Source of the DNA: Escherichia phage vB_EcoM_005
Length of the DNA stretch: 64,000 nt
Sequence record: MK295203
Reading direction: 5' to 3' (one strand)
Shown here: positions 1,908 through 57,461 of the stretch, piece after piece
How the letters are laid out: every line of letters starts with the position of its first letter
How positions within the stretch are numbered: the first letter of the stretch is position 1
Translations under genes and position numbers: made by a program
Notes under the pieces: generated by a model
What the model saw: only the letters and a program-made list of their open reading frames with translations
What the model was told of the DNA's origin: nothing
Databases searched by the model: none

Positions 1908-2819
1908 ATGACTCGTACTGAATACATCAATGCCTTTACTACGTATATCACTGCTGCCACCCCTCCATTAACCCCATACGAGGTAATAGTTTCTAATATC
2001 AATAAATGGGTAGACCAAATTGATGAAGCACTATCTGGTTGTTTCAAAGATGAAATCGAAAAGATTGCGAGTCGTTTGTTTATTTCTGATATCACGGAAA
2101 CTTTTAAAGGTTCTCGTTTGCTTTCACGCCTGGTCAATAAGGACATCCTTTCAGAGTTTGGCAAAGAGAAACATCCAGGTTCCAGCCATGTTGTTAGCTA
2201 TCAATGGTTTGGTGACGTTTTAAAAAGCTATGTCAAAATTAAAGGTGCCGATCCTAGTGGCCTATTTCCACAACGTTGGGCTGGTGAATTTAAGGCTAAC
2301 TCCGCATTAATTCTAAAAGCAGCAACCAAAACCTTTGTAAAGGGTGATTGTCGTACTATCCACCCTATGGCTAATTGCATGATTAAAACAAACAGCTATA
2401 AAGGGAAGGTACTTATTTCTATTATTTGGTCGCCTAGTCGGAAACCTAAAGAAGTTGAAGTTTCGAAATACCACGATATTTCCTACAATACCCTGAATAT
2501 GGTAGAACAGGCTTTAGCTTTGATGGATACAGTAGAGAAATATGAGATTCAAGAAATCAAACACCACTTAGGCTGGAAAGGATATGAAGTTTTAGTAACA
2601 GTTCGCGAAATCAAATGCCCTGTTCCAAAAACCGACGCTGAAATTTATCAAGAAAAATGTGAGGAAATTGTGAACACTGATAAAGAGCCTGCAACCTTAG
2701 AAGACCTGATTGATGAGCTGAATAGCCCGAGGCTATTGGCCTGTGCACAAATTACTAAATCCAAGTTACCAGAAGTCGTTGCGGACCGTCTTGAACAGGC
2801 TCTGGAGCTGCTGAAATGA
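1908..2819 (+). CDS. hypothetical protein
   Basis: 303 aa; start set at ATG preceded by GAGGAG RBS and early promoter. Confidence 0.5.
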   Translation: MTRTEYINAFTTYITAATPPLTPYEVIVSNINKWVDQIDEALSGCFKDEIEKIASRLFISDITETFKGSRLLSRLVNKDILSEFGKEKHPGSSHVVSYQWFGDVLKSYVKIKGADPSGLFPQRWAGEFKANSALILKAATKTFVKGDCRTIHPMANCMIKTNSYKGKVLISIIWSPSRKPKEVEVSKYHDISYNTLNMVEQALALMDTVEKYEIQEIKHHLGWKGYEVLVTVREIKCPVPKTDAEIYQEKCEEIVNTDKEPATLEDLIDELNSPRLLACAQITKSKLPEVVADRLEQALELLK

Positions 2820-3148
2820 AACAACGTTTAGCTGAAGATATTGCTTCAACAACCAATACAGGTTTATTGGAATTTATTAAAGCCGAGGATGTTGAAGCTG
2901 AATTGGTTGGTAAGATTCATGGTGATGAGTATAGTGATGTCGTTAATTGGGACGCTGTGATGGCCATGGTTGAACGTCGTGAAAAAGCTTCTAAGAACGT
3001 TCCGAACTGTCCTATGTGTGGAACTGAACAGGTCCAGTTGGTTCAATGGCGGCATAATCCACTTCAGTATAAATGTCGCATGTGTAAACACAAATTTGAG
3101 CGAGACGAAAATGGCAAAGCGCAAAGAATATGTAGAGGCGGCCGATAA
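2816..3148 (+). CDS. zinc-ribbon protein
   Basis: CPMCG...CRMCKHKF cysteine pairs; ATGA overlap with upstream gene. Confidence 0.45.
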
Positions 3149-3347
3149 GGCGGTCCGCGAACTTACTCTAGCTTATTATAAAGAGCACGGTAAATTTCCT
3201 GACAGTTATTCAGTTTTAAAATCTGCTTTAACTCGCTCGTATAATAATATACTATCTGATGTGTATGATTTAAAATATGAGCACATGGAAAAATATGGAA
3301 CAGAACTTGACCGTTCTGAAGCATTCAAACAAATATTAGGAATTTAA
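3111..3347 (+). CDS. hypothetical protein
   Basis: 78-aa ORF from internal ATG of track ORF 2970-3347. Confidence 0.4.
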
Positions 3348-3348
3348 A

Positions 3349-3513
3349 ATGGATGTGATGCCGGAAAAAGGTGTATTTGATGATGAGAAGATTGCTGAAC
3401 TCCTGGCTTCTCTTGGACGTGAATCTCAGGTAGGTTTGACTATGCCTCAGGTATTTGCTCCGGACGGAACTTCTATTGGTGGCTTTGACCAATTGCGAGC
3501 ATATTTCAAATGA
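3349..3513 (+). pseudogene. nrdC: thioredoxin NrdC, C-terminal remnant lacking the CxxC half
   Basis: 54-aa ORF MDVMPEKGVFDDEKIAELL...TMPQVFAPDG..IGGFDQLRAYFK matches my recollection of the C-terminal two thirds of T4 NrdC; no N-terminal CxxC segment in any frame upstream. Confidence 0.5.
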
Positions 3514-3800
3514 TTGAATTAAATGAACAGACTATTTTTCTAGGTGATGGTACCGAAGATGACCTGGAATATAAACTATACGAATATATGGTTTGGCTGG
3601 CTAAAGCAGAAGGTATTGACTTTGCTGTAGCTCACCCGTATGGCGAGAACACCGTTGTAATCGGTGGCACTGCTTATGAAGTCCAATGGCAATACGTTGG
3701 GCTTGAATCCGAAGAATTTGAAGAAGATGAACACGGTGATTGGCACCCAGTCGGCCCTTGGTACTGGGAAGATGGTGAACCCGATTTTGAAGTAGCATAA
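3510..3800 (+). CDS. hypothetical acidic protein
   Basis: 96-aa ORF, ATGA start/stop overlap. Confidence 0.45.
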   Translation: MIELNEQTIFLGDGTEDDLEYKLYEYMVWLAKAEGIDFAVAHPYGENTVVIGGTAYEVQWQYVGLESEEFEEDEHGDWHPVGPWYWEDGEPDFEVA

Positions 3801-3941
3801 AGGCCGTCTGATTGAACATTCGCTTTATGAACTTTCGGATTCAGGTTCTTTACCTGACCTAGAATCCGATTTGATTAAAGCTGCTGCTGACTATATCCAT
3901 TGGCTTGAAGCTCAACTTCGCTTTGCTGATAAGGCGTTCTG

Positions 3942-4118
3942 ATGAAAACTAAATTAGTCTATACCGAAAAGTTGGATGGCAGTAAGGTCTGGAAACTTCT
4001 TATCAAAGGAAGTCCTACCGACCAGTTTATGGCCACCTGTGTAGGATTGTATACTCGCCCTACCAAAAAGATGATTCGTCAATTTAAACGGTTGCATCGT
4101 TCGTTCTATAATGTTTAA
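3942..4118 (+). CDS. hypothetical protein
   Basis: 58-aa ORF (below track cutoff), TGATG overlap with preceding reading frame. Confidence 0.3.
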   Translation: MKTKLVYTEKLDGSKVWKLLIKGSPTDQFMATCVGLYTRPTKKMIRQFKRLHRSFYNV

Positions 4119-4156
4119 TAAATACCTATATCTAATTATTATTAAAGGTATAGGTC

Positions 4157-5131
4157 ATGCAAGATTTCGGACATTGGGCGGTATTTGAAGAAACCGATAT
4201 TAAAAACCATATTGGATTTGTATACGTAATCACTTTTGAAGATGGCAAAAAATATGTAGGTGCTAAAAAGATTTGGAAACGAATTAAAGCTGCACCTTGC
4301 ACATTTAAACGCGGCCCTAAAAAAGGATTTGAAGAATCTGATTGGAAAACCTATACCTCATCATCTAATGAACTAAACGCAATGATAGAAAAGGGTATAA
4401 GTCCTAAAGAGTACCTTATTGTAGGATGGTATCCTACTTGGGGTAAAACTCTTATGGCAGAAATGGAAATGCAATTAGCCAATGATGTTTTACGAGACCC
4501 TATGTGGCTTAACAAGCAAATTGGCGGACATTTCAACCCTAACTGCTTTGACGATTTAACCGCTGACGAAGTTGGCAAGTATATTAAATCTGGGTGGCAA
4601 TTTGGTCGTTCTAAAACAGAAAAACATTCTGTTACCTATAATTGCTCTAAATTTACTATATGGGACTATCAAGAAAATAAAGCAGTGGAAGTTCTAAATC
4701 AAAATGAGTTTGCTCGTAATAATGATTTAAGTAGCAACCATCTAACTAGACTACTTCAAGGAACTCTCGACCTTATTAAAGATCGCTGGGGACTTCCACC
4801 AGATATTGCTCGTCAGCGTTATAAATTTCAGGACGTTTCTTCAGGAACAAAATTTTTATCTAATTCTGAGTTAGAAGAATTTTACGGTATGACTCGCGGT
4901 CAGGCTAACAAAGCCGTTAAAGATGGAAGAGCCGTTAAATTGGTAGTCGAAAGCAAAGAAGACCACATTAAAAAACTTGGCTCTATCGAATTGGTAAAAA
5001 CCGAAAAGACAAAAGTTACGTCTCAAGTAATGCTTAACAGTTTTAAAGATATAGTTAATCCTATGACCACTGCCGAAAAATCAGAAATGATTGAATGGTT
5101 GGAAAGTTATATAACTTATTTGAAATCTTAA
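4157..5131 (+). CDS. GIY-YIG homing endonuclease (seg-like)
   Basis: N-terminal GFVYVITFEDGKKYVGAKK (GIY...YVG) motif; 324 aa typical of free-standing T-even seg genes. Confidence 0.6.
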   Translation: MQDFGHWAVFEETDIKNHIGFVYVITFEDGKKYVGAKKIWKRIKAAPCTFKRGPKKGFEESDWKTYTSSSNELNAMIEKGISPKEYLIVGWYPTWGKTLMAEMEMQLANDVLRDPMWLNKQIGGHFNPNCFDDLTADEVGKYIKSGWQFGRSKTEKHSVTYNCSKFTIWDYQENKAVEVLNQNEFARNNDLSSNHLTRLLQGTLDLIKDRWGLPPDIARQRYKFQDVSSGTKFLSNSELEEFYGMTRGQANKAVKDGRAVKLVVESKEDHIKKLGSIELVKTEKTKVTSQVMLNSFKDIVNPMTTAEKSEMIEWLESYITYLKS

Positions 5132-5260
5132 TGAGGAAATCGCTTAAATGATTAATTTTTATGGCTATACATTTTATGCTTTAGCCGAATCTCTGAACGA
5201 TGCGGTTCGTATTATGGGTGTTGAGTATCCTGCTCAATGGATATTTGTTGTAACTAATAC

Positions 5261-5488
5261 ATGGACTATCGTATGAACAAATTTCGTAATGCCGTTTCCG
5301 ATATCCTGGCTAATATCACATTAGTTCTGTTTATCGTATGCCTTTTAATCCTGGCTATTCCGTTTGGATTGCTGTTCATGATTATTGGTGCTCTGAGTAC
5401 TGAAAAAGGTCTTGAAGGGTCCGAGTTCGACAAACGAATCCAGGCTGTTCATAGTGTTATTTCTAAAATGATGAAGGTGAAAGAATGA
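5261..5488 (+). CDS. small membrane protein
   Basis: 75 aa with one long hydrophobic stretch. Confidence 0.4.
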   Translation: MDYRMNKFRNAVSDILANITLVLFIVCLLILAIPFGLLFMIIGALSTEKGLEGSEFDKRIQAVHSVISKMMKVKE

Positions 5489-5784
5489 AACGTTTTGAAG
5501 AATATGTAGCTACTAATTGGACCGCATGGGACAAGTTTGGTGATGATTGGTACTTCCATGACTGTGACCTGAACCCGGAATTCTTTGTCGATAAGGAAGA
5601 AGACCTTAAAGACATCTATGCTCTGTCAGAGATTCATGGTATTAAACCAACCGTTTATTTCTCTTTCGATGACACAGGTTTTCTTGTACAGGTTTACGTC
5701 CCATACAACACTAATGATGACGAAGAAGTTATCAAAACTTGGGACTACCAAGGAGTTATTTCCTATGGACCAAAAGTTAACTAA
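5485..5784 (+). CDS. hypothetical acidic protein
   Basis: 99-aa ORF with ATGA overlap. Confidence 0.45.
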   Translation: MKRFEEYVATNWTAWDKFGDDWYFHDCDLNPEFFVDKEEDLKDIYALSEIHGIKPTVYFSFDDTGFLVQVYVPYNTNDDEEVIKTWDYQGVISYGPKVN

Positions 5785-5983
5785 AATCGAAATCTACGGT
5801 ATCCCTGAGACAGTCATGGATGACAAGCCTCTTATAGTATCATTGGCCAAACGTGCCGGCTTCAAGAGCTTAGCGATACGCTATCCTGTCATATTTGTCG
5901 ATAATAAGAAAATAGAAAATATTCCTGCCTTTAAGTCACTTTTGATTGAACTTGGTTATGACCGAGATTTAATTGAAGATTAG
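5765..5983 (+). CDS. hypothetical protein
   Basis: 72-aa ORF starting MDQKLTK inside track ORF 5585-5983. Confidence 0.35.
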   Translation: MDQKLTKIEIYGIPETVMDDKPLIVSLAKRAGFKSLAIRYPVIFVDNKKIENIPAFKSLLIELGYDRDLIED

Positions 5984-5984
5984 T

Positions 5985-6013
5985 GTTTACTTCCTCTCCT
6001 CACGTGTTATAGT
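5985..6013 (+). promoter_or_regulatory. T4-type early promoter
   Basis: GTTTAC 5985-5990, 17-nt spacer, TATAGT 6008-6013, then CCTATCAAC leader and GAGGAG RBS. Confidence 0.5.
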
Positions 6014-6042
6014 CTATCCTATCAACACATGAGGAGAACATT

Positions 6043-6219
6043 ATGACTATCCAAGATAAAGAAATTAAAGTCAACCAGTATTATTCAATCAACGGCAAAG
6101 CTGTTCTAGTAACTGAAATATCTAGCCTGGATGTGTGGTATACCATAATTGACCTTAATATTAAAATGATTTGTGACCGTGGTGTATTTTGTTCGATAGC
6201 TAAGGAAATCAAATTATGA
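6043..6219 (+). CDS. hypothetical protein
   Basis: 58-aa ORF directly downstream of early promoter and RBS. Confidence 0.35.
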   Translation: MTIQDKEIKVNQYYSINGKAVLVTEISSLDVWYTIIDLNIKMICDRGVFCSIAKEIKL

Positions 6220-6470
6220 GCCTGAAATTACATTCAATGAAAAATGTCGTCACCCTTAATCTTGATGATGAACGTTTGATTTTTATCACCACCACAGATA
6301 AAAATATTGAAATCGCTAACGGCCCGAAAACTTATTGCTGTCCTGTTAAGAATTGGAAACGCGTAACATTTCTTACTCTGGCCGAACGCCTGAAAGATAT
6401 TAAGTTAGATTTGGATGTCAAAGATGTCCAATATATTAAAAATCTTATTGGATACAAACTGCTGAGGTAA
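6216..6470 (+). CDS. hypothetical protein
   Basis: 84-aa ORF, ATGA overlap. Confidence 0.45.
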   Translation: MSLKLHSMKNVVTLNLDDERLIFITTTDKNIEIANGPKTYCCPVKNWKRVTFLTLAERLKDIKLDLDVKDVQYIKNLIGYKLLR

Positions 6471-6472
6471 CT

Positions 6473-6766
6473 ATGGGTAAAACTATTCGTCGTAAAGAAT
6501 TGTCTGTAAAAGATTTTTATTATTCTGGACGCCGTAAAGCACCGGACGGCGTAAGTCAGGATTTGGTTGAAGAAAATATCTTCCGTTCTGACAAGTGGAA
6601 ACGTATGAGAGGCGTTGATTCCGAAGTTAAGAATGAAATGAACCGCCAACTTCGTAAAGAAGTGAGAAAGCTGAAAAAAGATGTTTACAACGACGATGAA
6701 CCTGATTACAATACTTCTCATCGAGTTGCAAAACGTAAATCAAACGAGTGTTATCGTTACAGCTGA
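6473..6766 (+). CDS. hypothetical basic protein
   Basis: 97 aa, Lys/Arg-rich. Confidence 0.45.
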   Translation: MGKTIRRKELSVKDFYYSGRRKAPDGVSQDLVEENIFRSDKWKRMRGVDSEVKNEMNRQLRKEVRKLKKDVYNDDEPDYNTSHRVAKRKSNECYRYS

Positions 6767-6773
6767 GGAAAAT

Positions 6774-6905
6774 ATGAATATTAAACGAATGCTTTTTAAG
6801 CAAGGGTTATATACTTTAAATTCTGCTCCAAAAGGCGATACAACCAAGGGGTCAGTAAATGACTGGGTTAAATTCATTGATGAAAATGGCAATTGGAAAA
6901 TTTAA
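6774..6905 (+). CDS. hypothetical protein
   Basis: 43-aa ORF with GAGGAA RBS. Confidence 0.3.
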   Translation: MNIKRMLFKQGLYTLNSAPKGDTTKGSVNDWVKFIDENGNWKI

Positions 6906-7106
6906 ATGAATCCTGAATCTAAATTATCACAGCGAATTGCTGAAGCTCGTCGTCAGTTCTTTGAAAATATGATGGCTCAAGGTATTGATGACGAAGTTTT
7001 TCTGAACTGGTTTTGGAATCACAAATATTCAGCTTGTTCAGGCGCTTTGTTAATTTCCGCAGCAATGATGTATGAAGGCTGGAAAGGTGCTAAAGCACAA
7101 AAATAG
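6906..7106 (+). CDS. hypothetical protein
   Basis: 66-aa ORF. Confidence 0.4.
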   Translation: MNPESKLSQRIAEARRQFFENMMAQGIDDEVFLNWFWNHKYSACSGALLISAAMMYEGWKGAKAQK

Positions 7107-7135
7107 TTTACAAACTCTTGGGACCAGAGTATAAT
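7106..7135 (+). promoter_or_regulatory. T4-type early promoter
   Basis: GTTTAC 7106-7111, TATAAT 7130-7135. Confidence 0.5.
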
Positions 7136-7174
7136 GGTCCTACGGATTATAACTTTAAAACTGAGGAAATTATT

Positions 7175-7504
7175 ATGTCACAAGCTATTAAAAACGTACT
7201 GAACTCTTTCGCTTTCGATAAAGTAAACGAACTGATGAAAACTGGTTTTGTAACTCCTCAGGTTCTTGACCAATGGGTTGCTGAACTGTTACCAATCATG
7301 CACTCTAAAGACCAGAAAATTGGTAAGAATGGTATTCGTGAAATCCTGGTTCAATATATCCTTGATGAATTCGATGTCGCAGCCTTTGGTGTCGAATCTA
7401 AAGCTTGGGCCCCTGGTGAAATCTCTGATAAAACTATCCGTCGTATGAAGAACCAGCGTAAGAAAAAATTCGTTGACCTTAAAATTGTTAAGGCGGCGAA
7501 ATGA
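7175..7504 (+). CDS. hypothetical protein
   Basis: 109 aa; start at ATG after GAGGAA RBS. Confidence 0.5.
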   Translation: MSQAIKNVLNSFAFDKVNELMKTGFVTPQVLDQWVAELLPIMHSKDQKIGKNGIREILVQYILDEFDVAAFGVESKAWAPGEISDKTIRRMKNQRKKKFVDLKIVKAAK

Positions 7505-7767
7505 TTAAAATAAAACTCTCTAATTACGATAAAAACTTGGAAATGATTGCTATGAAAGAAGAACTCCTGAATGATGTCCGCTTTACAGGTTATGCAGTTC
7601 AATTTAATGGTGATGGGGTTCTTCAAATTGAAGGCGACCACTTTATTATTGAATACGAATTTAAACAGTATTGGCTTTACGCGAAGGACGAAGTTGGCGG
7701 TGTTGATTACGTCGACGAGTTCGATAACCTAGATGATGCCTTGGAAGGAGCTCGATTCCTACAATGA
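7501..7767 (+). CDS. hypothetical protein
   Basis: 88-aa ORF, ATGA overlap. Confidence 0.45.
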   Translation: MIKIKLSNYDKNLEMIAMKEELLNDVRFTGYAVQFNGDGVLQIEGDHFIIEYEFKQYWLYAKDEVGGVDYVDEFDNLDDALEGARFLQ

Positions 7768-8027
7768 AACCCATATCCACCACCCTCGCCTACGAAGGTC
7801 TCGGATTTTTCTTAATAGATAACTGTATGGATGTTGAGTTTGTTTGTGGTGAGACTTCTTTAGTATGGAAGTCTCATATTTCCAAATACAACCATCGTGA
7901 ATATCCAGGTCTTTTTAAAGAATTTTGTGGATATATGTCTGAACACGGGTGTACTGATACAATTTCTTATTCCGAGTTCATACAAATCCTTGAAACAGTA
8001 TTTCAGGCTTATTGCTTACTCCGTTGA
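7764..8027 (+). CDS. hypothetical protein
   Basis: 87-aa ORF, ATGA overlap. Confidence 0.45.
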   Translation: MKPISTTLAYEGLGFFLIDNCMDVEFVCGETSLVWKSHISKYNHREYPGLFKEFCGYMSEHGCTDTISYSEFIQILETVFQAYCLLR

Positions 8028-8054
8028 TGCTTTAAAAGGGTCTTCAAATACTAT
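8028..8054 (+). promoter_or_regulatory. possible middle promoter (MotA-box-like TGCTTTA plus -10)
   Basis: TGCTTTA at 8028-8034, TACTAT at 8049-8054, upstream of gene 55. Confidence 0.3.
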
Positions 8055-8093
8055 GATATAATAGACCTATGATTTGAGTTATCTGAGGTAACA

Positions 8094-8651
8094 ATGACCA
8101 AAATTAAACTGACTAAAAATAATTATGTAAATAACAAGGAGCTTCTTAAAGCTATTACAAGTTGGAAGCAGGAATTATATGCTAATACCGACCCTAATAA
8201 AATCATTAGACAAAATGATACTATAGGATTGGCTATTATGCTTATAGCAGAAGGCCTCAGCAAGCGTTTCAACTTCTCAGGATATACCCAATCTTGGCGG
8301 CAGGAAATGATAGCTGATGGAATCGAAGCTTCGATTAAAGGTCTTCACAACTTCGACGAAACAAAATATGACAACCCACATGCATATATCACTATGGCTT
8401 GTTTTAATGCCTTCGTTCAGCGTATCAAAAAAGAACGTAAAGAAATGGCAAAGAAATATAGCTACTTCGTCCATAATGTCTATGACAGCAATGATGACGA
8501 CATGGTAGGTATTGCAGATGAAACCTTTATCCAAGATATCTACGACAAAATGACTCAGTATGAAACCTCTTTAACTAAAGCACCAGGGTCTGATAAGAGT
8601 GCCGAACCTAAAGTTGGTGAACTGGATTTTTTATATGGAACATCAGATTAA
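8094..8651 (+). CDS. 55: late-transcription sigma factor gp55
   Basis: 185 aa; long blocks ([51 protein letters not shown]) match my recollection of T4 gp55. Confidence 0.9.
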
Positions 8652-8865
8652 TATCACTCCACTTTTAGATGGAATGGAAGACTTCGAAGCACTCCCTTAT
8701 TTTATTAAATTGATATTACGGGATGTTAAAGGCCTTCCTATTGATATTGACCCACTTAACGTCAGGAATATTGAATTCACTTCTCCTGACAATAACGTAG
8801 ATTATCGTTATCATGTTGAGAACGCTAATTTCTACTTCACTATTGAATTGACTCCAAAGGATTAA
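8635..8865 (+). CDS. hypothetical protein
   Basis: 76-aa ORF overlapping the end of gene 55. Confidence 0.35.
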
Positions 8866-9634: not shown

Positions 9635-10390
9635 ATGAAATACATCACATACCTGACAATATATTCCGGGACTAAGCTTCCACCGTTTTATATAGGGTCT
9701 ACCACTTTGGAGAAGCATTTAAAAGGATACCACGGGAGTGTCCTTTCTAAAGCATATAAAGAAATCTATAAAAATGAGCTTTTAGAGCACCCAGAATTAT
9801 TTGACTCATGTATTGTAAGTGAACACCCTACAAGAGAAGAGGCTTTAGAAGCTGAAAGAATGTACCAGTTAAGAACCGATGCGGCCCAAAATCCTCTATT
9901 CTTTAATAGGGCTGTCGCAGCTCCTAAAGGATTCTTTGGGCTTTCGCTACCTAAAGAGCAACACCCTCTTTACGGCTCTCATAATGCTAAAGGGTATATT
10001 CATTCCTATAATCCTGTTACATTGGAACAAACCTTTGCACCTACAGTCCCCGAAGGATATGTAGAAGGTCGTTCACCTAATTATAAAGCATCTAGTCATA
10101 ATAAGGGCAGGAAGTGGTATAACAATGGTGTTGACAAAGGATTATTTGTAGAAGGAAAACAACCCGAATCTTGGGTTCTTGGTGGTTTTCTAACCGATGA
10201 GCATAAGAAAAACTTGAAAAGAACTGATGGGATATATGACGGCAATTATCACAATTTAGTTTATAAAATTTTTAAGCCTACCGTTACAATTGTTAGACCT
10301 AAGAAAATCTGGGTTAATGACGGCATAAAAAGCTTTATGATTTCTGAGATAGAATTTAATAGTGAAATACATTATAAAGGTAGATTATGA
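9635..10390 (+). CDS. GIY-YIG homing endonuclease
   Basis: N-terminal YITYLTIYSGTKLPPFYIGST motif; NUMOD-like H/S-rich linker repeats; sits where T4 has alpha-gt. Confidence 0.6.
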   Translation: MKYITYLTIYSGTKLPPFYIGSTTLEKHLKGYHGSVLSKAYKEIYKNELLEHPELFDSCIVSEHPTREEALEAERMYQLRTDAAQNPLFFNRAVAAPKGFFGLSLPKEQHPLYGSHNAKGYIHSYNPVTLEQTFAPTVPEGYVEGRSPNYKASSHNKGRKWYNNGVDKGLFVEGKQPESWVLGGFLTDEHKKNLKRTDGIYDGNYHNLVYKIFKPTVTIVRPKKIWVNDGIKSFMISEIEFNSEIHYKGRL

Positions 10391-13832: not shown

Positions 13833-14531
13833 ATGAAATTCTCTAAAGAAACTCTGAACATTCTGAAAAACTTCTCCGGTATTAACCCAGGTATCATGCT
13901 TAAACCTGGTAACACTATTCTAACTCGTTCAGTAACGGGTGCAAGTTATGGTGAAGCTACTGTAAATGACACCTTTGATATCGAAGCCGCAATTTATGAT
14001 TTGAACGGCTTCTTAAGTATTCTGTCATTGGTATCTGATAGTGCTGAAGTTTCGGTAAGTGAAGACCAAACCACTTTAATTATTAAAGACCAACGTTCAA
14101 CTATTAAGTGGCCTATTGCCGACCCAAGCACAATTGCATTCCCAAGCAAAGCTATTCCGTTCCCAGTGGCTGAAGTTATTTTTGACCTTAAAGCTGAAGA
14201 TTATCAACAGTTGATGCGGGTGTCCTCTGGACTGAGTATTGATACATTTGCTATTACTGTAGACAATGGTAAAATTGTAATCAATGGTTACAAACAAGTT
14301 GATGATAAGGACCTGGCACGCCCATTGTATTCCTTAGTGGTTGCAGACCATGATGGCCCTGAATTCAAATTCATTATTAACAAAACTAATATGAAAATGA
14401 TGCCGGCCGATTACCATGTTCTGTTATGGGCACGCGGTGAAGGTCAGGACGCTCGTTTCGCTGCTAAGTTTGAAGGTTCACAAGCTTCTTACGTATTAGC
14501 TATGGAAGCAGGCTCAAGCCACTCGTTCTAA
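13833..14531 (+). CDS. 45: sliding clamp gp45
   Basis: 232 aa; near-colinear with my recollection of T4 gp45 (SGINPGIML, AAIYDLNGFL, NKTNMKMMPADY, LLWARGEG). Confidence 0.92.
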   Translation: MKFSKETLNILKNFSGINPGIMLKPGNTILTRSVTGASYGEATVNDTFDIEAAIYDLNGFLSILSLVSDSAEVSVSEDQTTLIIKDQRSTIKWPIADPSTIAFPSKAIPFPVAEVIFDLKAEDYQQLMRVSSGLSIDTFAITVDNGKIVINGYKQVDDKDLARPLYSLVVADHDGPEFKFIINKTNMKMMPADYHVLLWARGEGQDARFAAKFEGSQASYVLAMEAGSSHSF

Positions 14532-14995
14532 TGTATATATGTTATCATAATACGATAACCAACACTAAAACCAAGTGTGTCTATCATTATTTTGGTAGAC
14601 ACCGTGTTACTGCTGAAGAATACTACGGTACAGGTAAGTTTGTTAAGAAATGCAAACGAGAAAATGCTATTACTCCAGGTCTTTGGGAGTTTTGTGTTGA
14701 AGTTATCCATACAGTGGATACGTTTAAAGAAGCCAAGATTATTGAAGAAGAGCTTGTTAAAGAAGGCATATCAAAATATGGTATCCTTTGTGTTAATAAG
14801 AATCCTGGTGGTGATGGCGGTGTGGATTACCACACCGAAGAATCTAAACGTAAAATGTCAGAAACTAGAACAGGAAAATCAAGAATATTTTCCGAAAGTC
14901 ATAAAGAAAATTTAAGTAAACGAGCCAGAAAATACTCTGATGTTTGGTCCGAACCTGTATATTCAAATCTTAAAACCATTTGGCTGGAAACAGGT
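14531..14995 (+). CDS. degenerate GIY-YIG/NUMOD endonuclease-like module, in frame with gene 44
   Basis: 155 codons with no stop before the gp44 Met; VYHYFG...YYGTGK (GIY-YIG-like) and HTEESKRKMSE / SESHKENLSK (NUMOD3-like); start overlaps gene 45 stop (TAATG). Confidence 0.45.
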
Positions 14996-15967
14996 ATGTT
15001 ATTAAATGGTTTAACTATTAATGAAAACGACTTCATGTGGGAACAGAAATATCGTCCAGGTACTTTATCTGAGTGTATTCTGCCTGCGCATGATAAAGAA
15101 ACCCTCCAAGCCATTGTTAATAAGGGCCTAATCCCTAACATTATCCTAGTCTCTGCTTCACCAGGCACAGGTAAAACTACCGTAGCTAAAGCATTGTGTG
15201 CTGATACAAATTCAGATATGCTGTTTGTTAACGGTTCTGACTGCCGTATTGATTTCGTTCGTAACGAACTTACTCGTTTTGCATCTTCTAAATCTATCGA
15301 AGGTAAGCGTAAGGTAATTGTTATCGACGAATTCGACCGCGCTGGTGTTGCTGAAGCTCAACGTCACCTTCGTTCGTTCTTAGAAGCCTATTCCTCAAAC
15401 TGTTCTGTAATTATTACAGCAAACAATATTGATGGTATTATCGGTCCACTTCAATCCCGTTGTCGTGTTATTAAATTTGGTGAAGCCACTCCAGCCGACC
15501 AAACATCCATGATGAAAGAAATGATTCATCGTGCTGTAGCAATCTGTAAAAACGAAAATATCGAAGTCGAAGACCTTAAAGTTATTGCCGCTTTAGTTAA
15601 ACAAAACTTTCCTGACTTCCGTAAAACAGTTAACCAACTGGACCGTTACTCATCCAGTGGTAAAATCGATACAGGCATTTTGAGTATTGTAATGAATACC
15701 AATTCGCCTATCGATGAAGTAGTGGCTGCACTTAAAGATAAAAACTTTAAAGAACTCCGTGCATTAGCTCCACGCCATGTCAATGACTATTCCAACTTTA
15801 TTATGTCACTGGCTAACGAACTCTATGGTAAATTGCCTGGACCAAGCATTGTTAGAATGTATGAAATTGTCGGTGAAAATAACCAATACCACGGTATTGC
15901 GGCTAACCCAGAAATTCACATGACTTATCTGTTCATCCAACTTGCTCTGGAGCTCCAATGGCTATAA
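14996..15967 (+). CDS. 44: clamp-loader large subunit gp44
   Basis: AAA+ Walker A SPGTGKTT, Walker B VIVIDEFD, sensor IITANN; high identity to my recollection of T4 gp44 from MLLNG..EQKYRPG onward. Confidence 0.9.
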   Translation: MLLNGLTINENDFMWEQKYRPGTLSECILPAHDKETLQAIVNKGLIPNIILVSASPGTGKTTVAKALCADTNSDMLFVNGSDCRIDFVRNELTRFASSKSIEGKRKVIVIDEFDRAGVAEAQRHLRSFLEAYSSNCSVIITANNIDGIIGPLQSRCRVIKFGEATPADQTSMMKEMIHRAVAICKNENIEVEDLKVIAALVKQNFPDFRKTVNQLDRYSSSGKIDTGILSIVMNTNSPIDEVVAALKDKNFKELRALAPRHVNDYSNFIMSLANELYGKLPGPSIVRMYEIVGENNQYHGIAANPEIHMTYLFIQLALELQWL

Positions 15968-26032: not shown

Positions 26033-26354
26033 TTTATCTGATTTAGATAATTTCGTTAAAGATACCGAAGAGGGTCCTAGTGACCCTCGGTATTATGAGA
26101 AATCATTAGATATAATCCGTAAGTCAATGGGTTCTGTTAAGCAGGAAATTATGCTTACTTTACCCGATGGCACTGCTCACATCGTTTATGTGATGAATAT
26201 TGTTATTGAGAAAGATGGAAAAGTGTCGGTTGATTTCGGAACACCTTCCGAAGACCGAAAAGAAGAGCTAGCGCTTCATGTAGAAAAATGTGTTACAATG
26301 CAAATACAAGAAGAACTGGATAAAATTAAATCTAAGAGGTGGTGGAAATGGTAG
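26025..26354 (+). CDS. hypothetical protein at the T4 gene 40 position
   Basis: 109-aa ORF between uvsX and 41; synteny only. Confidence 0.4.
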   Translation: MTDLSDLDNFVKDTEEGPSDPRYYEKSLDIIRKSMGSVKQEIMLTLPDGTAHIVYVMNIVIEKDGKVSVDFGTPSEDRKEELALHVEKCVTMQIQEELDKIKSKRWWKW

Positions 26355-27780
26355 AAACTATTTTGGCTCAACTGCTAGGCAATAGTGATTATTTCACTAA
26401 GGTCTGGCCTTATATGAATGATTCTTATTTTGACCAGGGTCCTGCAAAGACCCTTTTCAAAGAAATTAAAAAACACGTCAATGAATATAATGCAGTGCCT
26501 TCTAAGAACGCATTGAGCATTGCATTAGATAACAGTACGCTTTCAGAAGTTGAACATCAGGGCGCTAAAGAGCTTTTAAGTTCACTGAATGCCGGACCTG
26601 AAGACCAAGAATGGTTGGTTAAAGAGACGGAGAAATACGTTCAGAAAGCAGCGATGTATAATGCAACTTCAAAAATCATTGAAATCCAAACTAATGCCGA
26701 CCTTCCGGTTGAGCAACAAAATAGAAAACTTCCAGGTATTGGTGCTATTCCTGGATATCATGCGTGATGCATTATCGATTTGTTTCGATTCTGAATTAGG
26801 TCATGACTGGATGGATGACTATGAAGAACGATTCAAAAGTTATTCCGATAAAGCACGTAAGGTTCCGTTCCGTCTTAATATTCTGAATAAGATTACCAAG
26901 GGTGGTGCCGAGTTTGGTTACTGAAAACGTATTGTTGGCAGGAACAAACGTAGGTAAGTCTCTTGGCCTGTGTTCATTGGCTGCTGATTACCTTCAATCA
27001 GGTTACGATGTTCTTTATATCTCCATGGAGATGGCAGAGGAAGTATGTGCTAAGCGTATAGATGCCAACCTTCTGGATGTATCGCTGGATGATATCGATG
27101 ATGGTCATGTCTCTTGGCCTGAATATAAAGCTAAGATGGATAAATGGCGTTCAACTGCTACCTTAGGTCGTTTAAAGATTAAACAGTATCCTACTGGTGG
27201 TGCTAATGCCGATACCTTCCGTGCATTATTAAACGAATACAAGCTCAAACAAAACTTTGTGCCGCAGGTCGTTATCGTCGACTACTTGGCCATTTGTGCA
27301 TCGTCTCGTACTAAAGTTTTCTCTGAAAACAGTTACGGATTGATTAAGATGGTAGCCGAAGAACTACGTGGACTGGCAGTAGAGAAGAAATTATTGTTGT
27401 GGACAGCAGCCCAGACTACTCGTGGTGCGAACGTTGCGGCCGAAATCGATATGGCTGATATTGCTGAATCATTTGGTATTGCACATACTGCAGACTTCAT
27501 GTTAGGTGTGGTCGAGACAGAAGAGTTTGCTCAGATGGGTATGCAAATGGTTAAGCAGCTTAAATCTCGTTACGGCGATAAGAGCTACTACAACAAATTT
27601 AAGATTGGCGTTAAGAAAGGAAACCAACGTTGGTATGAAGTTGAAGACGATTCCAACCCAGGCCCGGTGAACACTGTTCGTGAGGCTACAGGTGAGATGA
27701 ATCGTCAAGCCGAGGTCAATCGTCAGACGCGTGTTAATAGAAGTGATTTAGACGATTTAGCAGCATCTATCAAATTTTAA
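26348..27780 (+). CDS. 41: replicative DNA helicase gp41 (DnaB-like), interrupted by two apparent +1 indels
   Basis: three consecutive ORFs in three frames (to 26767, 26589-26924, 26902-27780) together colinear with my recollection of T4 gp41; Walker A GTNVGKS; frame changes near 26754 and 26918. Confidence 0.85.
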
Positions 27781-31690: not shown

Positions 31691-31719
31691 CACAATTAAG
31701 CGTATGCAACGATTAGTTG

Positions 31720-32370
31720 ATGCTGGCGAAAGGGTTCTATTCTGGGACAAGAGGAAAATTAAGAGGTTCTAAGCGGTCTTTATCATATTATACGGAAGAA
31801 CACCATGTTATACCTAGATGTATGAATGGTTCTGATGATAAAAACAATTTAGTTGCTTTATTGCCAAGAGAACACTTTGTAGCTCATAGGCTTTTAACAA
31901 AAATATATCCCGAAGTAAAAGGTCTACATTATGCTGTTAATTTAATGAGATATAATAAAGGAGTTAAATTAACTAGTAGAACTATAGCCACGTTAAGAGA
32001 AAATAACGCTAAAGCATTTTCAGGAAAAAATAACCCGATGTTTGGTAAACCTTCCTGGATTAGAGGGATGAAAACTCCTGAAGAAACTAAAGCCAAAATG
32101 CGCCTGGCTCATAAAGATAAAATTATATCTGATGAAGCCAAGGCCAATATGAGTAAAGCTAGAAAAGGAAGATTTAGTGGTAAAGATTCCCCTAGATATG
32201 GTTTGCCAAATCCTAGGCGTGGAGAAATATGGAATAGTTACGATATGCTTTATGAATTATGGGTTTACAATAATAAACCTAAACGCACCAAATTTAATAA
32301 AATAGCTGTTGATAATGGATATCCTGATATTTGTTATCGACGAATGATAGAAAACTTTAATAGGAAATAA
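31720..32370 (+). CDS. HNH homing endonuclease
   Basis: EEHHVIPRCMNGSDDKNNLVALLPREHFVAH (HNH motif); NUMOD-like repeats; first ATG lies inside the last codons of the primase fragment in another frame. Confidence 0.65.
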   Translation: MLAKGFYSGTRGKLRGSKRSLSYYTEEHHVIPRCMNGSDDKNNLVALLPREHFVAHRLLTKIYPEVKGLHYAVNLMRYNKGVKLTSRTIATLRENNAKAFSGKNNPMFGKPSWIRGMKTPEETKAKMRLAHKDKIISDEAKANMSKARKGRFSGKDSPRYGLPNPRRGEIWNSYDMLYELWVYNNKPKRTKFNKIAVDNGYPDICYRRMIENFNRK

Positions 32371-32374
32371 TATA

Positions 32375-32512
32375 ATGGCATTTTTTAACGAATGTAGTGG
32401 TTTGATTTCTGGTGTTGATAAAGCTGAGGAAGCTTATTTTAATGCTCTGATTCACGAAGATAATTTATTTATTCGCTTTAATCTAACAGTTTATAATTAT
32501 CTAACTTATTAA
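32375..32512 (+). pseudogene. dCTPase gp56 N-terminal fragment (diverged partial duplicate)
   Basis: MAFFNECSGLISGVDKAEEAYFNALIHED then out-of-family tail; 52 bp identical to the start of the next copy. Confidence 0.5.
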
Positions 32513-32535
32513 TGAATTGAAAAAGGAAAAATATA

Positions 32536-32955
32536 ATGGCACACTTTAACGAATGCGCAAACCTGATTGCTGGTGTTGATAAAGCTGAGGAAGCTTATTT
32601 TAATGCTCTGATTCACGAAGATAAGGACCCTCTGCAGGTTATGTTGCGTGAACAGAAAGATTGTATTGACGATGAATTCCGTGAACTTCTGACTTCCCTC
32701 GGTGAAATGTCTAAAGGTGAGAAAGATGCATCTGCTGTATGGAAAAAATGGAAAGCCCGTTACCCGGAAGCACAAGCCAAACCTATTTCAGAAATGTCTC
32801 CTGAAGACCAGCTTGAAATTAAATTTGAACTCATTGATATTATGCACTTCGTATTCAATATGGCTATTGGCTTGAATATGTCGGCTGAAGAAATGTTTAA
32901 ACTTTATTACCTGAAAAATAAACACAACTTTGAACGCCAGGACAATGGATATTAA
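32536..32955 (+). CDS. 56: dCTP pyrophosphatase gp56 (MazG-like), copy 1
   Basis: 139 aa; MAHFNECA..., KDCIDDEFRELLTSLGEMS, EDQLEIKFELIDIMHF, KLYYLKNKHNF match my recollection of T4 gp56; lacks about 32 internal residues relative to T4. Confidence 0.8.
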   Translation: MAHFNECANLIAGVDKAEEAYFNALIHEDKDPLQVMLREQKDCIDDEFRELLTSLGEMSKGEKDASAVWKKWKARYPEAQAKPISEMSPEDQLEIKFELIDIMHFVFNMAIGLNMSAEEMFKLYYLKNKHNFERQDNGY

Positions 32956-33379
32956 TTTCAAATCCGTTCTTAAAGAAAAGTTCCCGCAATGGGAACTTTT
33001 AGAAGATAAACCTGAATATAACCGTCATCCTGATGACTTGGCTACTGCAGGTGAAGTTGTTGATTGGTTGCGCAATCAGAAAGATTATATTGATGATGAA
33101 TTCCGCGAACTTCTGACTTCTCTTGGTGGCATGAGCAATGGCGAAAAAGATGCGAGCGCTGTATGGAAGCCTTGGAAAGCTCAACATGCTGAACGTCGTG
33201 AAACCCTGATTAACGATTTGTCTCCTGAAGACCAGCTCGAAATTAAATTCGAAATGATTGATATTCTGCACTTTGTTCTGAATATGTTCCAAGGTCTTGG
33301 ACTGACTGCTGAAGAAATCTTTAAACTGTATTACCTGAAAAATAAACACAACTTTGAACGCCAGGACAATGGATATTAA
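32945..33379 (+). CDS. 56: dCTP pyrophosphatase gp56 (MazG-like), copy 2 with a different N-terminus
   Basis: 144 aa; carries the HPDDLATAGEVVDWLRNQKDYIDDEF segment missing from copy 1 but lacks the MAHFNEC N-terminus; last 90 nt identical to copy 1. Confidence 0.7.
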   Translation: MDINFKSVLKEKFPQWELLEDKPEYNRHPDDLATAGEVVDWLRNQKDYIDDEFRELLTSLGGMSNGEKDASAVWKPWKAQHAERRETLINDLSPEDQLEIKFEMIDILHFVLNMFQGLGLTAEEIFKLYYLKNKHNFERQDNGY

Positions 33380-33412
33380 TTTCAAATCCGTTCTTAAAGA
33401 AAAGTTCCCGCA

Positions 33413-34210
33413 ATGGGAACTTTTAGAGGTCATGATTACTTAAAAATTATAGATAAGTATAAACTAAACGTCCATACCAAATCTAAAACTGAAGCTCATC
33501 ATATACTTCCGAAGTGTGCATTTCCAGAATACAGCGATTTTAAAATCTCTCCTTGGAATAGGGTGTATCTTCCTATATACCAACACATATATGTTCATTA
33601 TCTTTTGTGCTCAACTAAGGTGTCGGGTTTGCTTAATGCATTCCAGAGAATGACACTAACAAATAGTGCCCAGTTTAAGAAGCTTTCTGATTTAGAGAAA
33701 GACCTTACTATTAAGTTATGGGCCGATAAACGTGGGGAGTGGATAGAGCAAGACATTCTCCGTAAAAGAAAATCCTTTATGTATTCTAATTTTGATTTCT
33801 GGTATAATGACTGGATTTCGCGGGATATGCCTCGCTATCGAAGATATTGGGGAGTTTTGGTTGAAGAAAATAATCCGGAAGTTTTAGGTACCCACAAAAA
33901 TAGTTTATTGACAGTGGTAAAAGATTTTTGTTTGAGATACGCAGAAGAACATAATTTATCTGAAGAAGAAGTTTTGAGTCTTCAAAAATTAAAACAGTCT
34001 TCAGAAAAAGCTTTAAAAGATAAAGGAAAAACTTTAAGTAAAACTGCTAGAGGCAATCAACTCAAATGGAATTATGAAACTGAGCTTAGGAATTTATGGA
34101 TTGCTAATAACAAACCAAAATATGTGAATTTCAGAAAGCTAGTGGTTAGCTTAGGCTACCCGGATGAAAATTATATAAACATGATAAAGAGGTTTGAAAA
34201 TGGGTTCTGA
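33413..34210 (+). CDS. HNH homing endonuclease
   Basis: TEAHHILPKCAFPEYSD...NRVYLP...HIYVH (HNH motif); start codon lies within a 92-bp repeat derived from gene 56. Confidence 0.65.
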   Translation: MGTFRGHDYLKIIDKYKLNVHTKSKTEAHHILPKCAFPEYSDFKISPWNRVYLPIYQHIYVHYLLCSTKVSGLLNAFQRMTLTNSAQFKKLSDLEKDLTIKLWADKRGEWIEQDILRKRKSFMYSNFDFWYNDWISRDMPRYRRYWGVLVEENNPEVLGTHKNSLLTVVKDFCLRYAEEHNLSEEEVLSLQKLKQSSEKALKDKGKTLSKTARGNQLKWNYETELRNLWIANNKPKYVNFRKLVVSLGYPDENYINMIKRFENGF

Positions 34211-40066: not shown

Positions 40067-40482
40067 AAGATATAATTATTGACTTTGAAACCTTTGCCAC
40101 TACCCAAAATGCAGCGGTTATCGACCTCGCCGTAATTGCTTACGACCCTAATCCAGCCTTTGACTTTCCTATCTTAGTCGACCTAATCCGTGATGCTTAT
40201 CGTTCTGAAGGTGTTCCTGAGAATGAAATTGATACCAGTAAATTAGAACCGGTTAAATTCTGGAACCAACGCGATATCCGTACAGCCATTGAAGCATATT
40301 CACTAACTCGTGGATTGAGCATGTGTCCTCTGCCTAACGGAACATTGAAGGGCTTTGTTGCTCATGACTCCATCCATGACTGTGCTAAGGATATCTTGAT
40401 GCTGAAATATGCCCAACGATACGCCTTGAGCCTGGAAGATGTCCCTGAGAATCCAGACCCATTAAGTATAAAAAATCGATAA
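40063..40482 (+). CDS. dexA: exonuclease A DexA (DEDDh), with large internal in-frame deletion
   Basis: IIIDFET (motif I) and HDSIHDCAKDILML (motif III) match my recollection of T4 DexA; 139 aa versus about 227 aa in T4. Confidence 0.7.
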   Translation: MKDIIIDFETFATTQNAAVIDLAVIAYDPNPAFDFPILVDLIRDAYRSEGVPENEIDTSKLEPVKFWNQRDIRTAIEAYSLTRGLSMCPLPNGTLKGFVAHDSIHDCAKDILMLKYAQRYALSLEDVPENPDPLSIKNR

Positions 40483-55417: not shown

Positions 55418-55678
55418 TTGATGCAATCGAAGCCCATATTAATCATGTTAAACGCACTGAATGCCACGGTGGAAGATAATTGGGGAACTTATGTAAACCA
55501 ACCGGCTTGGGATGCTTTAGACCACGAATATATAAAGAATATTAGTTCTAAGACAATCCACGGGAATATGGAAGGGTTGAAGCCATTCCTACGTGATATG
55601 TATATTGCAACTAATAAAGAAATTATCAGCTCTCTTGAATATCAATTAAGGAAATTACGTGAACAATCTGGTAGCTAA
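55418..55678 (+). CDS. hypothetical protein (second copy at 56899-57111)
   Basis: 86-aa ORF; C-terminal 70 residues repeated nearly identically 1.4 kb downstream. Confidence 0.4.
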   Translation: MMQSKPILIMLNALNATVEDNWGTYVNQPAWDALDHEYIKNISSKTIHGNMEGLKPFLRDMYIATNKEIISSLEYQLRKLREQSGS

Positions 55679-55800
55679 GCACGACTCATAAGGACAAGAA
55701 GAAAAACTTTAAAGAGTCTAAACGTAAACAGAAACATAAGGGTAAAGGCTATGAGTCATAACTTAGAGAATACCGTAACAGGCATGCGTACACGGGACAT

Positions 55801-55829
55801 GTTTACAATCCCTAAGGATATGTTAGTAT
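55801..55829 (+). promoter_or_regulatory. T4-type early promoter (copy 1)
   Basis: GTTTAC 55801-55806, 17-nt spacer, TAGTAT 55824-55829. Confidence 0.5.
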
Positions 55830-55870
55830 AGCCCTATCAGATAATGACGTACTGAATTGAAGAGAATATT

Positions 55871-56005
55871 ATGACTAAAATTGAAATCGTTTCCGAAATT
55901 GCCACTATTGTTTCCATTTTGATTAAAACGGATTGTGAAGACATCATGCAACGTCGTGATGAGTTTATGAACATGTTTACAATCCCTAAGGATATGTTAG
56001 TATAG
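55871..56005 (+). pseudogene. asiA 5' duplicate, truncated at the repeat junction
   Basis: MTKIEIVSEIATIVSILIKTDCEDIMQRRDEF then reads into the repeated promoter sequence and stops. Confidence 0.5.
55975..56003 (+). promoter_or_regulatory. T4-type early promoter (copy 2)
   Basis: identical to the 55801-55829 promoter. Confidence 0.5.
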
Positions 56006-56044
56006 CCCTATCAGATAATGACGTACTGAATTGAAGAGAATATT

Positions 56045-56320
56045 ATGACTAAAATTGAAATTGTTTCCGAAATTGCTACTATTGTTTCCATTTTGATTAA
56101 AACGGATTGTGAAGACATCATGCAACGTCGTGATGAGTTTATTGCCTTTTTGAATGAGTTGGGTATTCGTAATGAACATGGAAAGGAACTTAATGGTTTG
56201 TCTTATAACAAATTATTTAAGTCTTTAACTGAAGATGAACGTGACACTCTTATTGAGCAATTTAATGAAGGATATGAAGATATACACCGTTATTTAATGA
56301 TGTATACCTCCAATTTCTAA
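56045..56320 (+). CDS. asiA: anti-sigma-70 factor AsiA
   Basis: 91 aa; TIVSILIK...FIAFLNE.G..HEG..LN..S..K....LTE...TLIEQFNEGYE..HRYL.MYT matches my recollection of T4 AsiA. Confidence 0.85.
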   Translation: MTKIEIVSEIATIVSILIKTDCEDIMQRRDEFIAFLNELGIRNEHGKELNGLSYNKLFKSLTEDERDTLIEQFNEGYEDIHRYLMMYTSNF

Positions 56321-56643
56321 CGTGTTCGACCTAATGTCCTTCCGGCTTGACCGCACATAGACGAAAGTCTAGGAAATCCTAAATCCGGTTTGGCGCCTTT
56401 TTGAATGAGTTAGGTATTCGTAATGAACATGGAAAGGAACTTAATGGTTTGTCTTATAACAAATTATTTAAGTCTTTATCTGAAGATGAGCGTGAAACTC
56501 TTATTGAGCAATTTAATGAAGGATATGAAGATATACACCGTTACTTAATGATGTATACCTCCAATTTCTAACGTGTTCGACCTAATGTCCTGCCCGGCTT
56601 GACCACACATAGACGAAAGTCTAGGAAATCCTAAATCCGGTTT
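56144..56643. repeat. tandem duplication, 2 x about 250 bp (asiA 3' half plus the convergent holin 3' end)
   Basis: copy 1 56144-56392, copy 2 56395-56643, about 97% identical. Confidence 0.8.
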
Positions 56644-56907
56644 GATATCATACCAGTACAACGATATCGAGCCGGCGTAGACGTTATCCAAATTAAAAAA
56701 CGGGCATGAAAACATATACGTGAATTGTGTTTTCTTCTTTGTAGGAAGGAATACAGTTTCAGTACTTGATTCAAAGATATCATACCAGTACAACGATATC
56801 GAGCCGGAGTAGACGTTATCCAAATTAAAAAACGGGCATGAAAACATATACGTGAATTGTGTTTTCTTCTTTGTAGGAAGGAATACAGTTTCGATGTCAT
56901 GGTGGAA
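56644..56907. repeat. tandem duplication, 2 x 132 bp (in frame, 44 codons of holin)
   Basis: copies differ at one position. Confidence 0.8.
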
Positions 56908-57111
56908 GACAACTGGGGAACTTATGTCAACCAACCGGCTTGGGATGCCTTAGACCACGAATATATAAAGAATATTAGTTCTAAGACAATCCATGGTAAT
57001 ATGGAAGGGTTGAAGCCGTTCCTACGTGATATGTATATTGCAACTAATAAAGAAATTATCAGCTCTCTTGAATATCAATTAAGGAAATTACGTGAACAAT
57101 CTGGTAGCTAA
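56899..57111 (+). CDS. duplicate copy of the 55418-55678 ORF, embedded within the holin region
   Basis: 70-aa ORF about 93% identical at DNA level to 55469-55678. Confidence 0.35.
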   Translation: MVEDNWGTYVNQPAWDALDHEYIKNISSKTIHGNMEGLKPFLRDMYIATNKEIISSLEYQLRKLREQSGS

Positions 57112-57133
57112 GCACGAGGGTACTTGATTCAAA

Positions 57134-57339
57134 ATAGTTCCCGTTAACTCCCGCCATATATTCTACTGACGTTTTGTCAATTGGAAACCCTCCCGTATTT
57201 TTTGCGTCTACCGTTTCCGGTAATTTACCCTCGTAGATAGTTCCCGTTAACTCCCGCCATATATTCTATTGACGTTTTGTCAATTGGAAACCCTCCCGTG
57301 TTTTTTGCGTCTACCGTTTCCGGTAATTTACCCTCGTAG
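57134..57339. repeat. tandem duplication, 2 x 103 bp within holin
   Basis: copies differ at 2-3 positions; period not a multiple of 3. Confidence 0.8.
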
Positions 57340-57343
57340 GCCA

Positions 57344-57461
57344 CCATATCCACAAAATAATTCATGTTGGTTGGTCTAAAAGAATATATTGCTGTGAAGG
57401 AGCAACCATATCCACAAAATAATTCATGTTGGTTGGTCTAAAAGAATATATTGCTGTGAAG
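57344..57461. repeat. tandem duplication, 2 x about 62 bp within holin
   Basis: 56 bp identical in both copies; creates the stop ending the N-terminal holin ORF. Confidence 0.8.

Follow-up and report, generated by a model that had tools for sequence, protein, structure and literature searches.

A probable artefact of assembly or processing truncates the nrdC gene of Escherichia phage vB_EcoM_005 in a Dhakavirus early region without nrdD and nrdG

The closest described counterparts of the locus considered here are found in phage T4 and in phages of the genus Dhakavirus. T4 NrdC, a glutaredoxin also designated 'thioredoxin' (PDB 1AAZ/1ABA), and its Dhakavirus orthologues, such as those of Bp7 (YP_007004090) and JS98 (YP_001595211), carry a redox-active CxxC motif at the N-terminus of helix 1, which reads CVYC in T4 and CVFC in Bp7. 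T4 possesses at this locus a class III anaerobic ribonucleotide reductase (RNR), encoded by nrdD and nrdG together with the I-TevII intron and mobC. For the cluster formed by JS98, JS10 and IME08, an 'nrdGDBA' organisation has been given (PMC3653736). The present study concerns the nrdC gene and its surroundings up to gene 55 in Escherichia phage vB_EcoM_005 (sequence record MK295203), of which a stretch of 64,000 nucleotides (nt), referred to below as the window, was analysed. In this sequence the nrdC open reading frame (ORF) at 3349-3513 is truncated and has lost its CxxC half. Comparison with related phages indicates that the truncated gene is most likely an artefact of assembly or processing, not a real feature and not a case of gene decay. 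The predicted absence of nrdD and nrdG, by comparison, is real.

By similarity and gene order the window is assigned to the early region of a Dhakavirus, that is, a T4 relative of the JS98/Bp7 type. The best megablast match of positions 2800-8700 is Escherichia phage Bp7, with 93.9% identity over 100% of the query, and the other matches are likewise Dhakavirus phages (Straboviridae, Tevenvirinae). Identity to these relatives along the window is 88-98%, and no identical phage is present in the database. The genes follow the order of the T4 early region along the direction of transcription: nrdC.6 ... nrdC.4, nrdC.2, nrdC.1, nrdC, 49.3 ... 55.8, nrdH, 55.6 to 55.1, 55, 47 and 46. The gp55 protein is identical to gp55 of phage MX01, in which both nrdC and gene 49 are intact. 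The genes described below between nrdC.1 and gene 55 are all located on the plus strand.

The ORF at 3349-3513 encodes a product of 54 amino acids (aa), MDVMPEKGVFDDEKIAELLASLGRESQVGLTMPQVFAPDGTSIGGFDQLRAYFK, which consists of the start codon and codons 35-87 of an 87-aa T4-type glutaredoxin. It aligns with residues 35-87 of T4 NrdC in PDB entry 1AAZ (E=4.9e-26), and the original prediction was right in describing it as the C-terminal part of NrdC without the CxxC half. Codons 2-34, FKVYGYDSNIHRCVFCDNAKRLLDVKKQPYEFI, are missing, and with them the first strand and helix and the CxxC motif that T4 NrdC and Bp7 NrdC possess; the CVFC of Bp7 and IME08 falls within these 33 codons, and no cysteine pair is found in the product. 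Alignment with Bp7 and IME08 reveals one 99-nt gap straight after the nrdC ATG. At the junction, positions 3351-3353, about 100 nt of the relatives have been replaced, and the window sequence across it reads AATTTAAAATGGATGTGATGCCGGA. The retained part is orthologous to NrdC of T4 and the Dhakaviruses, and its location between nrdC.1 and 49.3 is shared with T4, JS98, IME08 and Bp7. The 78-aa ORF immediately upstream (3111-3347), which had been regarded as unrelated, proves to be the usual neighbour nrdC.1: it is 69% identical to T4 NrdC.1 (tblastn, E=5e-34), occurs in the same register in Bp7, IME08 and T4, and ends 1 base 5' of the nrdC start, as it does in Bp7 and IME08.

What is left of nrdC is well preserved. 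The rest of the gene shows 96% DNA identity to Bp7 and agrees with it in 51 of 52 residues; beyond a single clean cut, the remnant thus displays no decay. With residues 2-34 lost, the product as written cannot be a redoxin. A complete thioredoxin fold with CxxC, the result that would have spoken against a truncated gene, was not found: the remnant matches no Pfam family at E<=10, while intact Bp7 NrdC scores 31 bits against Glutaredoxin (PF00462; gathering score 22.9), and the N-terminal 34 residues of NrdC are encoded nowhere else in the 64 kb (tblastn, best E=0.1). In NCBIfam, the only matches were sub-threshold and confined to the final ~25-35 positions of the glutaredoxin models. The nrdC junction occurs in none of about 90 related database phages, the best matches among which all align as two pieces 99 nt further apart, and it is absent from IMG/VR and metagenome contigs in an exact 25-mer scan. 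A window-specific 41-mer also had no match in an exact scan of IMG/VR, and neither the 54-aa product nor that of the following ORF (3510-3800) is represented in an exact-protein index.

The nrdC lesion is one of a series. When the whole window was compared with Bp7 and Shigella phage PSD9, it was found to lack about 99 nt (94-102) relative to both references at 18 positions, so that at least 18 such sites are present in 64 kb. They are located at 1441, 2783, 3352, 4562, 5819, 12297, 12774, 16916, 19485, 24505, 32644, 35709, 44941, 46089, 46749, 51628, 53959 and 59711. At 14 of these, both references give a loss of exactly 99 nt. Thirteen sites were also checked against JS98, and all were confirmed; IME08 confirmed each of the four with which it was compared (1441, 2783, 3352 and 5819). 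Bp7 and PSD9, aligned with each other over the same interval, differ by 11 insertions or deletions of at least 20 nt, which are all of different sizes, none of them near 99 nt.

The junctions resemble one another closely in form. In BLAST alignments, most of them have a single window base left unaligned against 100 bases of the relative, and at about 10 junctions this base agrees with neither end of the lost block. Since the leftover base is foreign to both block ends, the replacement of 100 nt by 1 fits the data better than a simple deletion. Microhomology is absent from 11 of the 12 junctions analysed, and the nrdC junction is also without it. Every 99-nt loss is in frame, while codon phases 0, 1 and 2 are all represented among the junctions. 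The excised blocks share no motif (pairwise matches are no longer than 9-15 nt), and their guanine-plus-cytosine content of 0.39 equals that of the window. Relocation of the blocks within the window was considered and rejected, the lone partial match being the second copy of gene 56.

An artefact would be expected to leave many lesions of the same size in this sequence only, placed without regard to gene structure and viability, and the lesions are indeed uniform in size, specific to the window and blind to gene structure. With coordinates mapped onto the PSD9 annotation, the genes cut are a nrdC.5-like ORF, nrdC.4, nrdC, a GIY-YIG gene, nrdH, the gene for gp46 (twice), orf43.1, the gene for DNA polymerase gp43, an ORF similar to RB69 orf047c, the dCTPase gene 56, modA.3, the end of gene 39 and rIIA (twice); three further loss sites lie beyond 51 kb. 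Protein lengths fit these losses exactly for single blocks in NrdC (54 aa in the window against 87 in relatives), NrdH (72 against 105), the GIY-YIG protein (324 against 357) and gp43 (870 against 903), and for two blocks in rIIA (670 against 736). For gp46, the lengths of 498 aa in the window and 560 in PSD9 agree with two blocks to within a few residues. The gp43 product is without about residues 797-829 of RB69 gp43, close to the C-terminus. The block at 44941 takes away the final 19 nt of gene 39 along with the stop codon and 81 nt of the intergenic sequence, and the ORF consequently runs on to 44989.

The nrdH gene provides the second example of a damaged redoxin. It had been counted as missing before gene 55 but is present at 5765-5983, where T4 NrdH matches it with an internal gap (tblastn, E=5e-22). 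According to translations compared with IME08, MX01 and Bp7, a 34-residue segment, RCPGC...GAVY, has been replaced by a single Asp through the 99-nt excision at 5819. The N- and C-terminal parts are shared with T4 NrdH, whereas the CPGC segment is missing in the window only, and no Pfam family is recognised in the 72-aa remnant.

Lesions of other kinds are also encountered in the window. At 38788, 128 nt are replaced by 1, with a frameshift in dda; at 52848, 153 nt are replaced by 1, with a frameshift in gene 52; and at 40156 dexA has lost 255 nt. All three are window-specific. The replicative helicase gene 41 (26339-27780) is broken into three ORFs by two +1 insertions, near 26752 and 26919, which are specific to the window and absent from Bp7 and PSD9. 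In the arn/asiA region (55461-57461), scrambled direct duplications of 60-224 nt, 96-99% identical and joined by 0-2 unaligned bases, are made up of pieces that are single-copy in Bp7 and PSD9.

It is proposed that the locus is an ordinary Dhakavirus early block, nrdC.1-nrdC-49.3 ... nrdH ... 55, in which the underlying nrdC would encode a normal T4-type glutaredoxin of 87 aa, which serves NrdAB, the aerobic class Ia reductase of the phage, as hydrogen donor. A non-biological excision would have converted 100 nt into one base, a net loss of 99 nt, thereby taking codons 2-34 with the CxxC motif, and the same operation would have been repeated at least 18 times across the window. Masked or N-filled blocks of 100 nt collapsed to one base may serve as an example of such an operation; block lengths of 100, 128 and ~256 nt are suggestive of fixed-length masked blocks. 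The uniform size, the lack of end repeats, the disregard of gene boundaries and the damage to several replication genes point to a technical process rather than to natural deletion or decay, and from this we infer that the lesions originated in assembly or in later handling. The phage itself would, with high probability, carry an intact nrdC. The claim that nrdC has been reduced to a remnant holds for the bases as written; as a statement of gene decay it does not, the nrdC loss being one of at least 18 excisions of the same size, some of them in essential genes.

Some considerations weigh against a technical origin. It is argued from comparison with relatives, and the absence of the excision from the real phage DNA would be an indirect conclusion. 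T4 is known to do without nrdC under laboratory conditions, and as the losses are in frame, a genuine nrdC deletion would be viable if taken in isolation. Two of the 18 excisions, moreover, take the CxxC motifs of both redoxins, an event with a rough chance of about 1 in 1000 for these particular motifs. The double loss is nevertheless regarded as an unremarkable coincidence, since 18 cuts of 100 nt placed at random in 64 kb of gene-dense sequence would be expected to strike about one known motif. If the active-site half of NrdC had been removed by a natural in-frame deletion, host thioredoxin or glutaredoxin would reduce the phage class Ia reductase. Such a deletion would be in keeping with the retained reading frame and native start, from which a 54-aa product is possible, with the non-essential nature of nrdC in T4, and with the condition of nrdH, whose own loss of CxxC could be read as part of a coordinated loss of redoxins. 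It is, however, highly unlikely, because the nrdC lesion shares its size and style of junction with 17 others, which affect gp43, gp46, rIIA and gene 56 as well as a stop codon. The junction has no microhomology and is absent from the related phages and from the viral and metagenome collections, and the near identity of the remnant to Bp7 NrdC gives no sign of relaxed selection.

A genuinely degenerate genome, in which all lesions reside in a real DNA molecule, for example that of a defective particle or of a remnant in decay, or one from a chimeric metagenome bin, would account together for the frameshifts in gp41, dda and gene 52, the duplications at 55-57 kb and the 18 block losses. This explanation is very unlikely: natural decay produces deletions of varied sizes, usually between short repeats, whereas 14 of the 18 losses are of exactly 99 nt and have no repeats. 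Outside the lesions, furthermore, the sequence is 88-98% identical to that of viable phages and its ORFs are otherwise intact, and T4-like phages have a strictly lytic life cycle and do not persist as resident remnants. Were the lesions real and the phage a viable Dhakavirus, both of its redoxins would have lost their CxxC halves through in-frame deletions of 33 codons, its aerobic reductase would depend entirely on thioredoxin or glutaredoxin of the host, and an unknown deletion process with a uniform step of 99 nt would have to be assumed; this is considered extremely improbable. The artefact reading has a practical consequence. Truncated genes or missing motifs reported from this window should be checked first against the 100-nt excision sites and the other lesions, as otherwise false findings of gene decay may be obtained for nrdC, nrdH, gp43, gp46, rIIA, gene 56, dda, gene 52 and gene 41.

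The absence of the anaerobic reductase is of a different nature. A class III RNR is recognised by homologues of the NrdD glycyl-radical enzyme and of its NrdG radical-SAM activase, and the window encodes neither: tblastn searches of the 64 kb at E<=10 with T4 NrdD (both exons) and NrdG gave nothing better than E=0.35. The original prediction therefore stands, even under this relaxed search, for nrdD and nrdG, though not for nrdH. Of the T4 class III locus, only the flanking genes 49.3, 55.8 and nrdH are kept in the window. Neither nrdD nor nrdG is found in the interval between nrdC and gene 55 of Bp7, IME08, PSD9, MX01 or JS98, and neither protein has a homologue at E<=0.01 (tblastn) in the complete genomes of Bp7 and JS98, in which the same searches do find NrdC and NrdH, as well as gp49 in JS98. 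Both JS98 and Bp7 encode nrdA and nrdB. T4 NrdD has matches in 2914 phage records, and among 60 of these, sampled across the whole set, no Dhakavirus occurs. The predicted absence is thus a real trait of the genus Dhakavirus and not a peculiarity of this locus, as it is common to all relatives examined, including the complete JS98 and Bp7. The Dhakavirus genomes already published imply as much. The 'nrdGDBA' organisation given for JS98 (PMC3653736) is unsupported, as the JS98 genome yields no NrdD or NrdG match.

Between the DUF7279 ORF described below and 55.8, the window carries a SegE-like GIY-YIG homing-endonuclease gene (4157-5131), as the original prediction had noticed. Its Pfam match to SegE_GIY-YIG (PF19835, residues 10-122, E=7.8e-34) establishes the GIY-YIG catalytic domain, and the product is predicted to be a SegE-type homing endonuclease. 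The ORF of 324 aa corresponds to PSD9 ORF150, which is intact with 357 aa; the 99-nt excision is located after 4562. Relative to IME08, the GIY-YIG gene (window 4110-5131; Bp7 5092-6029) replaces positions 4916-5507, which represent gene 49 minus its last 20 nt. The same arrangement is found in seven database Dhakaviruses, namely 04086, ABTNLS3, E33, Bp7, FB, LQ5 and PSD9, while gene 49 is retained in JS98, IME08 and MX01. No homologue of gp49 (endonuclease VII) was detected by tblastn in the complete Bp7 genome. With the free-standing SegE-type genes of T-even phages the window gene shares its N-terminal domain and its lone placement between conserved genes; it differs from them in that it replaces gene 49 instead of standing beside an intact target, and also in being 99 nt shorter. 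A relationship between the GIY-YIG protein and gp49 was suggested by a C-terminal match to gp49 residues 85-97 (E=0.006 in pairwise comparison, 0.05-0.4 against the window). It was rejected as chance, because only 13 residues are involved and neither an Endonuclease_7 nor a dimerisation domain is found in the GIY-YIG protein. A literature search found no paper linking Dhakavirus with anaerobic RNR or with endonuclease VII.

Elsewhere in the window, a-gt.3 and gene 47 are separated by a 251-aa ORF (9635-10390), an insertion of +727 nt in comparison with Bp7 and PSD9. This ORF matches no Pfam family; a GIY...YIG-like pattern is visible by eye at its N-terminus, and it may represent another free-standing homing endonuclease.

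Most of the remaining ORFs between nrdC and gene 55, which had been described as small and unassigned, are identifiable. The first is the 96-aa homologue of 49.3 (3510-3800), which T4 49.3 matches over residues 1-96 of 102 (tblastn, 78% identity, E=1e-45). A window-specific lesion at 3795, in which 167 nt are replaced by 1, clips the last 49.3 codons and takes the start of a pin-like ORF; the breakpoint lies at 3794/3796 in comparisons with Bp7, PSD9 and IME08. A 58-aa ORF similar to RB32 ORF078c follows (3942-4118) and belongs to DUF7279 (Pfam, E=1.8e-16); it also bears a weak resemblance to the C-terminal end of T4 Pin (tblastn, Pin residues 144-160). Beyond the GIY-YIG gene, the homologue of 55.8, a membrane protein, is located at 5261-5488 (T4 55.8, tblastn E=4.8e-12), and an ORF similar to RB69 ORF082c is situated between 55.8 and nrdH. 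After nrdH come 55.6 (6043-6219), a DUF7290 ORF (6216-6470), 55.5 (6473-6766), 55.4 (6774-6905), 55.3 (6906-7106), 55.2 (7175-7504), 55.1 (7501-7767) and a DUF7200 ORF (7764-8027). The members of the 55.6-55.1 run were identified by tblastn with the T4 proteins at E values between 2e-19 and 4.5e-45, and the two DUF ORFs by Pfam; the ORFs at 3942-4118, 6216-6470 and 7764-8027 thus fall in phage DUF families. The order of the ORFs from 6043 to 8027 is the same as in JS98, IME08 and Bp7. Gene 55, encoding the late sigma factor, lies at 8094-8651, its product being 79% identical to T4 gp55 (tblastn, E=6e-95).

Further downstream, the clamp-loader gene 44 appears to be fused with the ORF preceding it into a single ORF of 478 aa (14531-15967). 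In Bp7 and MX01, gene 44 is preceded by a separate ORF of ~190 aa, and the window is without ~112 nt of the Bp7 sequence near 15000. The 3' part of the dCTPase gene 56 is present in two copies (32491-33382), which are 76% and 92% identical to PSD9. An HNH/NUMOD3 ORF (31717-32370) lies upstream of these copies, and a 265-aa ORF without a family match (33413-34210) lies just downstream of them.

The biological content of the locus that remains after the lesions have been set aside is modest, but it is real. As a lineage, the Dhakaviruses possess only the aerobic reductase with NrdC and NrdH, and are without the class III anaerobic reductase that T4 has at this locus; and a subset of Dhakaviruses, vB_EcoM_005 among them, carries a predicted GIY-YIG endonuclease gene at the usual site of endonuclease VII.

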